Source of the DNA: Escherichia coli
GTDB lineage: Bacteria; Pseudomonadota; Gammaproteobacteria; Enterobacterales; Enterobacteriaceae
Length of the DNA: 64,000 nt
Assembly (NCBI RefSeq): GCF_003334335.1
Contig: NZ_QOWQ01000003.1
Strand: one strand, 5' to 3'
Position 1 is the stretch's first letter; the number at the start of each line of letters is the position of its first letter. The position numbers and the translations under genes are program-made. Below are positions 57,916-60,665 of this stretch, in pieces. A model generated the notes under the pieces. That model was given only the letters and a program-made list of their open reading frames with translations. It searched no databases and had not been told where the DNA came from.

Positions 57916-60665
<2,750 letters not shown>

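Follow-up and report, generated by a model that had tools for sequence, protein, structure and literature searches.

The ydhYVWXUT genes of Escherichia coli have been described as an operon that is activated by FNR from a site at -42.5 (PMC3688515, citing Partridge et al., 2008), and they appear as an FNR-activated operon again in PMC10845959, which also cites Partridge et al. (2008). The annotated N-terminus of YdhY has been detected experimentally by N-terminomics, and SignalP 6.0 places the protein in the class TATLIPO with a cleavage probability above 99% (PMC13245402, an N-terminomics paper of 2026). The ydhY gene considered here lies on the minus strand of a 64,000-nucleotide stretch of E. 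coli DNA (hereafter the window; all coordinates refer to it), where its reading frame is interrupted by an in-frame stop. To our knowledge, no physiological role has been assigned to the anaerobic YdhYVWXUT oxidoreductase system. The reading developed below, to which we give a probability of roughly 0.85, is that this stop is a genuine, heritable nonsense mutation that has turned ydhY, the first gene of the operon, into a loss-of-function pseudogene and has become fixed in a small natural sub-lineage of E. coli that is related to K-12.

Read directly from the minus strand of the window, the ydhY start codon ATG (60665-60663, minus strand), preceded by the Shine-Dalgarno-like sequence GAGG with an anti-SD pairing energy of -5.8 kcal/mol, opens a frame of 208 codons whose sole interruption is the TAA at codon 22 (60602-60600, minus strand). 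The translation runs MNPVDRPLLDIGLTRLEFLRI, meets the stop, resumes with GKGLAGL and then stays open up to the natural stop at 60039-60041 (minus strand); in the list of open reading frames of the window, this frame appears only as a 170-aa ORF beginning at the TTG at 60551. The MG1655 gene (b1674, NP_416189.1; 627 bp, 208 aa) maps exactly onto 60039-60665, with 626 of 627 nucleotides identical and all 627 positions aligned. The one difference is a plus-strand G>T at 60601 (C>A in the mRNA sense), which changes the serine codon TCA of MG1655 to TAA (S22*, a G:C>T:A transversion); codons 23-208 and the natural stop (60039..60599, minus strand), which include four cysteine motifs for [4Fe-4S] clusters, are otherwise those of MG1655. 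The TAA is a single mutation within an otherwise identical conserved gene, and a chance pattern of open reading frames is excluded. The preliminary description of this locus was correct in its coordinates, in its sequence and in the span of 208 codons; the length that it gave for the reference protein and the serine that it expected at codon 22, one substitution away from TAA, agree with the MG1655 alignment, and its placement of the gene in an FNR-regulated ydhYVWXUT operon agrees with the literature (PMC3688515, PMC10845959).

The identity of the damaged gene is clear from its family relationships. With Ser22 restored, the sequence matches the NCBIfam equivalog model NF007382 (PRK09898) with 436.7 bits, against a cut-off of 213, over positions 1-208 of 208, and this full-length match identifies the locus as ydhY by descent. 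Pfam adds matches to the Fer4 family over residues 116-199 and finds 4Fe-4S dicluster domains. The four cysteine motifs (C68/71/74/78, C123/126/131/135, C156/159/162/166 and C183/186/189/193) are invariant in an alignment of 28 full-length YdhY homologues with identities down to 42% (alignment A1), and all of them lie downstream of the stop. The uninterrupted full-length frame that characterizes members of the NF007382 family is broken in the window by the TAA at codon 22, and an in-frame stop within a region that aligns over its full length to the intact MG1655 gene is what PGAP treats as an internal stop; the base itself is real in the sense required of a pseudogene, as four contigs are 100% identical across the site. 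From these comparisons the locus is classified as a pseudogene of the YdhY family, rather than as a functional member of it.

The position of the stop within the protein gives the mutation its predicted consequence. Codons 14-20 (60606..60626, minus strand) encode T-R-L-E-F-L-R, which alignment A1 identifies as a degenerate twin-arginine (Tat) motif: homologues of at most 57% identity carry (S/T)-R-R-x-F-L-K with two consecutive arginines at this place, whereas E. coli, Citrobacter, Budvicia, Brenneria and Edwardsiella have R-L, and others R-Q or R-K. The motif is followed by S/T-G-K-G, a hydrophobic core and G40-C41; R15, F18 and G40 are invariant, and C41 is conserved in at least 90% of the sequences. 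Residues 38-41 (L-L-G-C), which close the hydrophobic core, fit the lipobox pattern L-x-[GAS]-C, with Cys41 encoded at 60543..60545 (minus strand), downstream of the stop and untranslated from the native start. Searched by themselves against the family model, the first 60 residues reach 99 bits, and they are almost unchanged in Citrobacter. E. coli YdhY lacks the consecutive Arg-Arg of canonical Tat signals (TIGR01409/PF10518); a search of the N-terminal 60 residues against NCBIfam at E-values up to 10 returned no Tat-signal model, none was found among the 25 of 53 Pfam matches listed, and no homologue had a precomputed PF10518 match. Judged by the alignment, the N-terminus of E. coli YdhY is homologous to Tat signals, in a degenerate form; the earlier label of a "Tat-like signal" finds support in the RR motif of distant homologues and in the published TATLIPO call (PMC13245402). 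It is odd for a ferredoxin with four clusters to carry a natural "Tat" signal of the R-L type, and Tat export is here a prediction.

Codon 22 is the Ser/Thr position directly after the motif, which places the stop within the signal peptide. Translation that begins at the native ATG ends after 21 residues of this Tat/lipoprotein-type signal; the hydrophobic core, the lipobox residue Cys41 and all four cluster motifs lie beyond the stop, and the native start can no longer yield a full-length, exported YdhY. The conservation and signal-type character of the N-terminal region, together with the use of the annotated start in vivo (PMC13245402), argue that YdhY function is probably lost.

Between 60602 and 64000 the window does not differ from MG1655, and a pattern match finds the FNR box TTGATAACGATCAA upstream of ydhY (60866..60879, minus strand) perfect and intact, in a region identical to MG1655. 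With promoter and FNR box unchanged, the operon should still be transcribed in anaerobiosis. The idea that the substitution has created a new promoter or terminator was discarded, as scans for such sites return the same outcome for the window as for MG1655. Downstream of ydhY, the gene ydhV for an aldehyde-ferredoxin-oxidoreductase-like protein of 700 aa (57916..60018, minus strand) is intact apart from the substitution G262S (the exact protein is P0031) and carries its own Shine-Dalgarno sequence (-5.6 kcal/mol), from which we predict that translational coupling to ydhY is not needed; the frames of ydhW, ydhX, ydhU and ydhT (54935..57912, minus strand) are intact and show no difference from MG1655. 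Approximately 580 nt of ydhY mRNA would be left untranslated, and this makes partial Rho-dependent polarity on ydhVWXUT possible. In a crude scan for an excess of C over G, the best 78-nt windows lie near 60353-60455 (C 27-29%, G 14-17%); as a Rho site this stretch is suggestive, which is not the same as evidence.

Among the alternatives to complete loss of function, the one that survives best, although we regard it as unlikely, holds that ydhY remains partly functional because translation begins at GTG codon 62 (or at TTG codon 39) and yields a cytoplasmic ferredoxin of 147-170 aa that retains the four cluster motifs and lacks the signal and lipid anchor. The candidate restart (60480..60494, minus strand) combines the Shine-Dalgarno-like sequence AAAGGGG (60488-60494) with GTG62 (60480-60482) and would hypothetically produce a protein of 147 aa without a signal; of the in-frame candidates, GTG62 has the best anti-SD pairing (-7.9 kcal/mol, compared with -5.8 kcal/mol at the native ATG), every cysteine motif lies downstream of residue 62, and the rest of the frame is undamaged. 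A truncated ferredoxin from GTG62 could therefore be made and might keep some cytoplasmic activity. Against this, the use of GTG62 is itself a prediction, whereas wild-type cells show the annotated N-terminus (PMC13245402); TTG39 has no Shine-Dalgarno sequence (+1.2 kcal/mol), and the strong conservation of the N-terminal 60 residues implies that they are needed. If the partner proteins are exported, a subunit without a signal would find itself in the wrong compartment; YdhX presumably carries a Tat signal. The lack of decay downstream of the stop fits a young pseudogene, and it fits continued use of the distal part of the gene equally well. On balance we favor the pseudogene reading, under which ydhY would be a young pseudogene that has not decayed further.

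A wider comparison of codon 22 indicates how rare the nonsense allele is. A 71-bp probe centered on the stop found matches in 5,397 complete E. coli genomes; 5,394 of these are one base off the window and have a sense codon at this position, and exact matches occur in only three: SCU-308 (NZ_CP053281.1), isolate 58 from Madrid (NZ_OW968011.1) and 1335KP (NZ_CM173848.1). With a longer query of 762 bp, no 100% match was obtained among 5,426 complete E. coli genomes, and the best matches were K-12-type alleles one base off. PGAP labels ydhY as "pseudo, internal stop" in all three carriers, and reference alleles that combine the TAA with an annotated start downstream of it, the case that the preliminary description had considered adverse to its claim, were not found. 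The three genomes resemble the window in having the same TCA>TAA change at codon 22 of an otherwise intact 208-codon frame in the same operon context; they differ from it by two synonymous changes in ydhY (nt 168 and 291) and by approximately 15 other differences per 3 kb. Since these differences place them on another haplotype, the nonsense mutation in these three genomes is independent of that in the window, and it has arisen at least twice. The TAA is unlikely to have been imported from the lineage of SCU-308 through recombination, as the flanking SNPs differ within about 100-200 bp on either side. The ydhY region is disrupted in another way in strain C9 (NZ_CP010129.1), where an IS1 element splits the match in two, and uidA of AH21 is flagged "pseudo, internal stop" (L008, 29500-31311); both are further cases of strain-specific gene disruption in the region.

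The window belongs to a natural lineage related to K-12. An origin from K-12 itself was rejected, as the window differs from MG1655 by 21 clean SNPs, by a 96-bp in-frame repeat difference in rsxC, and by 73 extra bases between sodB and ydhP. AH21 is the nearest complete genome; it shares the 73-bp insertion and eight SNPs with the window and still differs from it at 15 sites. Thirteen sites are private to the window in comparison with both MG1655 and AH21 (six missense or nonsense, three synonymous, four intergenic), and they include the ydhY stop, ydhV G262S and sodB G63V. Contigs that carry an older marker, YdhQ T263I, fall into three types, represented by L016 (GCA_022758815.1, found in 19 similar places), L017 (GCA_014463015.1) and L018 (GCA_003334335.1). 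The first two retain an intact ydhY of 208 aa with TCA at codon 22, Gly262 in YdhV and Gly63 in SodB, and each has five private differences; L018 is identical to the window over 21,257 bp, TAA included. Since TCA persists in the sister contigs L016 and L017, which have the older markers in common with the window, the TAA is derived and recent. By this distribution, the nonsense mutation, YdhV G262S and SodB G63V all arose on the branch that leads to a small sub-clade of this natural K-12-related lineage, and the similar length of the sister branches (3-5 changes per 21 kb) would point to natural divergence rather than laboratory mutagenesis.

Several other variants in the window deserve mention in their own right. 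The ydhV change G262S (GGC>AGC, 59235) falls on the same branch as the ydhY stop and is absent from L016 and L017. The sodB change G63V (GGC>GTC at 41680, codon 63) is a lineage variant; the exact SodB protein was read on 11 contigs, two of which come from ENA metagenomes; another, L012, has a shorter spacer between sodB and ydhP. In the window this spacer (approximately 42175-42233) has 73 bases more than in MG1655, in common with AH21; our guess would be that the insertion is a REP-type element. The repeat region of rsxC (approximately 14786-15210) has one 96-bp (32-aa) unit fewer than in MG1655 and AH21, giving a protein of 708 rather than 740 aa; as the exact 708-aa RsxC was found on 30 contigs, the variation in copy number is real. 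At eight sites (176, 10286, 10431, 25506, 40534, 42170, 46498 and 51346) the window and AH21 agree with each other against MG1655, a strikingly non-synonymous set with six missense changes (uidB L100P, ydgJ F78L and Q30L, anmK Q71R, punC A134T, ydhQ S324G), no synonymous change and two intergenic ones.

The recurrence of the same stop raises the question of adaptive loss, in which two unrelated lineages would have acquired the identical mutation through selection for early inactivation of ydhY. The TAA at codon 22 does occur on two clearly different haplotypes, and in the lineage of the window the branch that acquired the stop also acquired ydhV G262S; ydhYV thereby holds two of the three changes specific to this branch within 21 kb, for which P is approximately 0.045 in a test that was chosen post hoc. 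Yet a stop codon can be reached in ydhY by 82 single-base routes, of which 24 belong to the common G:C>T:A class, and one coincidence among approximately 5,400 complete genomes and thousands of drafts is unremarkable. The carriers are also rare (3 of 5,397 complete genomes and approximately five contigs in the sub-clade of the window), and we consider adaptive loss quite improbable. A more elaborate variant, in which the nonsense mutation of both lineages acts as a selected "relocalisation switch" and the signal-less 147-aa ferredoxin from GTG62 would rewire the YdhV system to the cytoplasm, seems to us more improbable still. Under the pseudogene reading, the loss appears to be tolerated, and the operon would be dispensable in natural strains.

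Full-length YdhY could in principle be restored by readthrough, either through an ochre suppressor tRNA or through programmed recoding. The window holds nothing in favor of this; any suppressor tRNA gene would have to be encoded outside the 64-kb window, where an ochre suppressor is conceivable. The two tRNA-Val genes within the window are identical to those of MG1655, E. coli does not recode TAA (its selenocysteine codon is TGA), the context TAA-G comes without a known recoding signal in surroundings that are wild type, and PGAP labels this very allele a pseudogene; readthrough is scarcely credible.

The reality of the base itself was examined through its carriers. Variant proteins of the window were looked up as exact sequences, and contigs encoding the exact YdhV G262S were then retrieved; five contigs were read for this protein, and the resulting count of carriers is a lower bound. 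YdhV G262S, SodB G63V, the YdhQ variant and the 708-aa RsxC of the window are each on record in several NCBI, ENA or Logan assemblies. Three contigs besides L018, namely L009 (Logan SRR1815430), L010 (GCA_012531195.1) and L011 (Logan SRR10357301), match the window with 100% identity across 7-10 kb, with the same base at 60601 and hence the same TAA (60600..60602, minus strand); the L009 contig was seen in four samples and the L010 contig in two, and the nonsense allele is thus inherited within the sub-clade. In the NCBI assemblies of this lineage (L010, L018), PGAP calls no protein at the position of ydhY. Counting carriers by way of shortened proteins of 170, 156, 149 or 147 aa was abandoned, as alternative start calls on intact genes yield the same sequences. 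The annotation of the ydhY start is inconsistent in public genomes; the 147-aa form that begins at GTG62 (P0061) is found on 698 contigs, and forms of 149, 156 and 170 aa occur as well, with the consequence that shortened YdhY entries alone do not signal a stop.

A sequencing or assembly error, with TCA as the true codon and TAA as the artefact of one assembly, might have been suspected from the scarcity of the TAA (just 3 of 5,397 complete genomes, none on the haplotype of the window), but it is rejected because four contigs that come from separate datasets and assemblers (two SRA runs assembled by Logan, and two NCBI assemblies) match the window over 7-21 kb with TAA in every case, and because the other private variants of the window recur in independent records. 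The predominance of missense and intergenic changes among the 13 private differences had given rise to a suspicion of artificial changes. Lineages that have diverged only very recently are expected to show a high share of non-synonymous differences, and random errors, mutagenesis or planted changes are ruled out by the recurrence of the exact variant proteins, and of identical DNA, in public assemblies. More generally, where sequencing reads are not at hand, a real allele can be told from an error by looking up the neighboring variant proteins, retrieving the sister contigs and inspecting the site. Of the three alternatives that the preliminary description had offered, the nonsense-mutant pseudogene is upheld by the single TCA>TAA change and by the PGAP flag on the identical allele, while the sequencing error falls with the four identical contigs; translation from a downstream start is a less probable candidate, whose product would lack the signal region.

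In the carrier lineage ydhY should be annotated as a pseudogene, a matter of little importance beyond annotation itself; for these strains, predictions concerning the anaerobic oxidoreductase system encoded by ydhYVWXUT should not start from a complete complex. The carriers represent natural ydhY-null strains, and together with their TCA sisters they would provide convenient near-isogenic pairs for the study of the operon. Compared with Tat lipoprotein signals in general, the N-terminus that the stop interrupts shares the layout of n-region, T-R-x-x-F-L-R, hydrophobic core and L-L-G-C; it differs by having R-L in place of R-R and by matching no Tat profile, and its Tat export is predicted only. 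Compared with the wild-type YdhY of K-12 (b1674), the window has the same promoter, the same FNR box and the same downstream genes, and the replacement of Ser22 by a stop is the difference between them. In kind, such a change is already known: it is an ordinary strain-specific nonsense polymorphism in a dispensable gene, and RefSeq already has a pseudogene flag on the identical allele.
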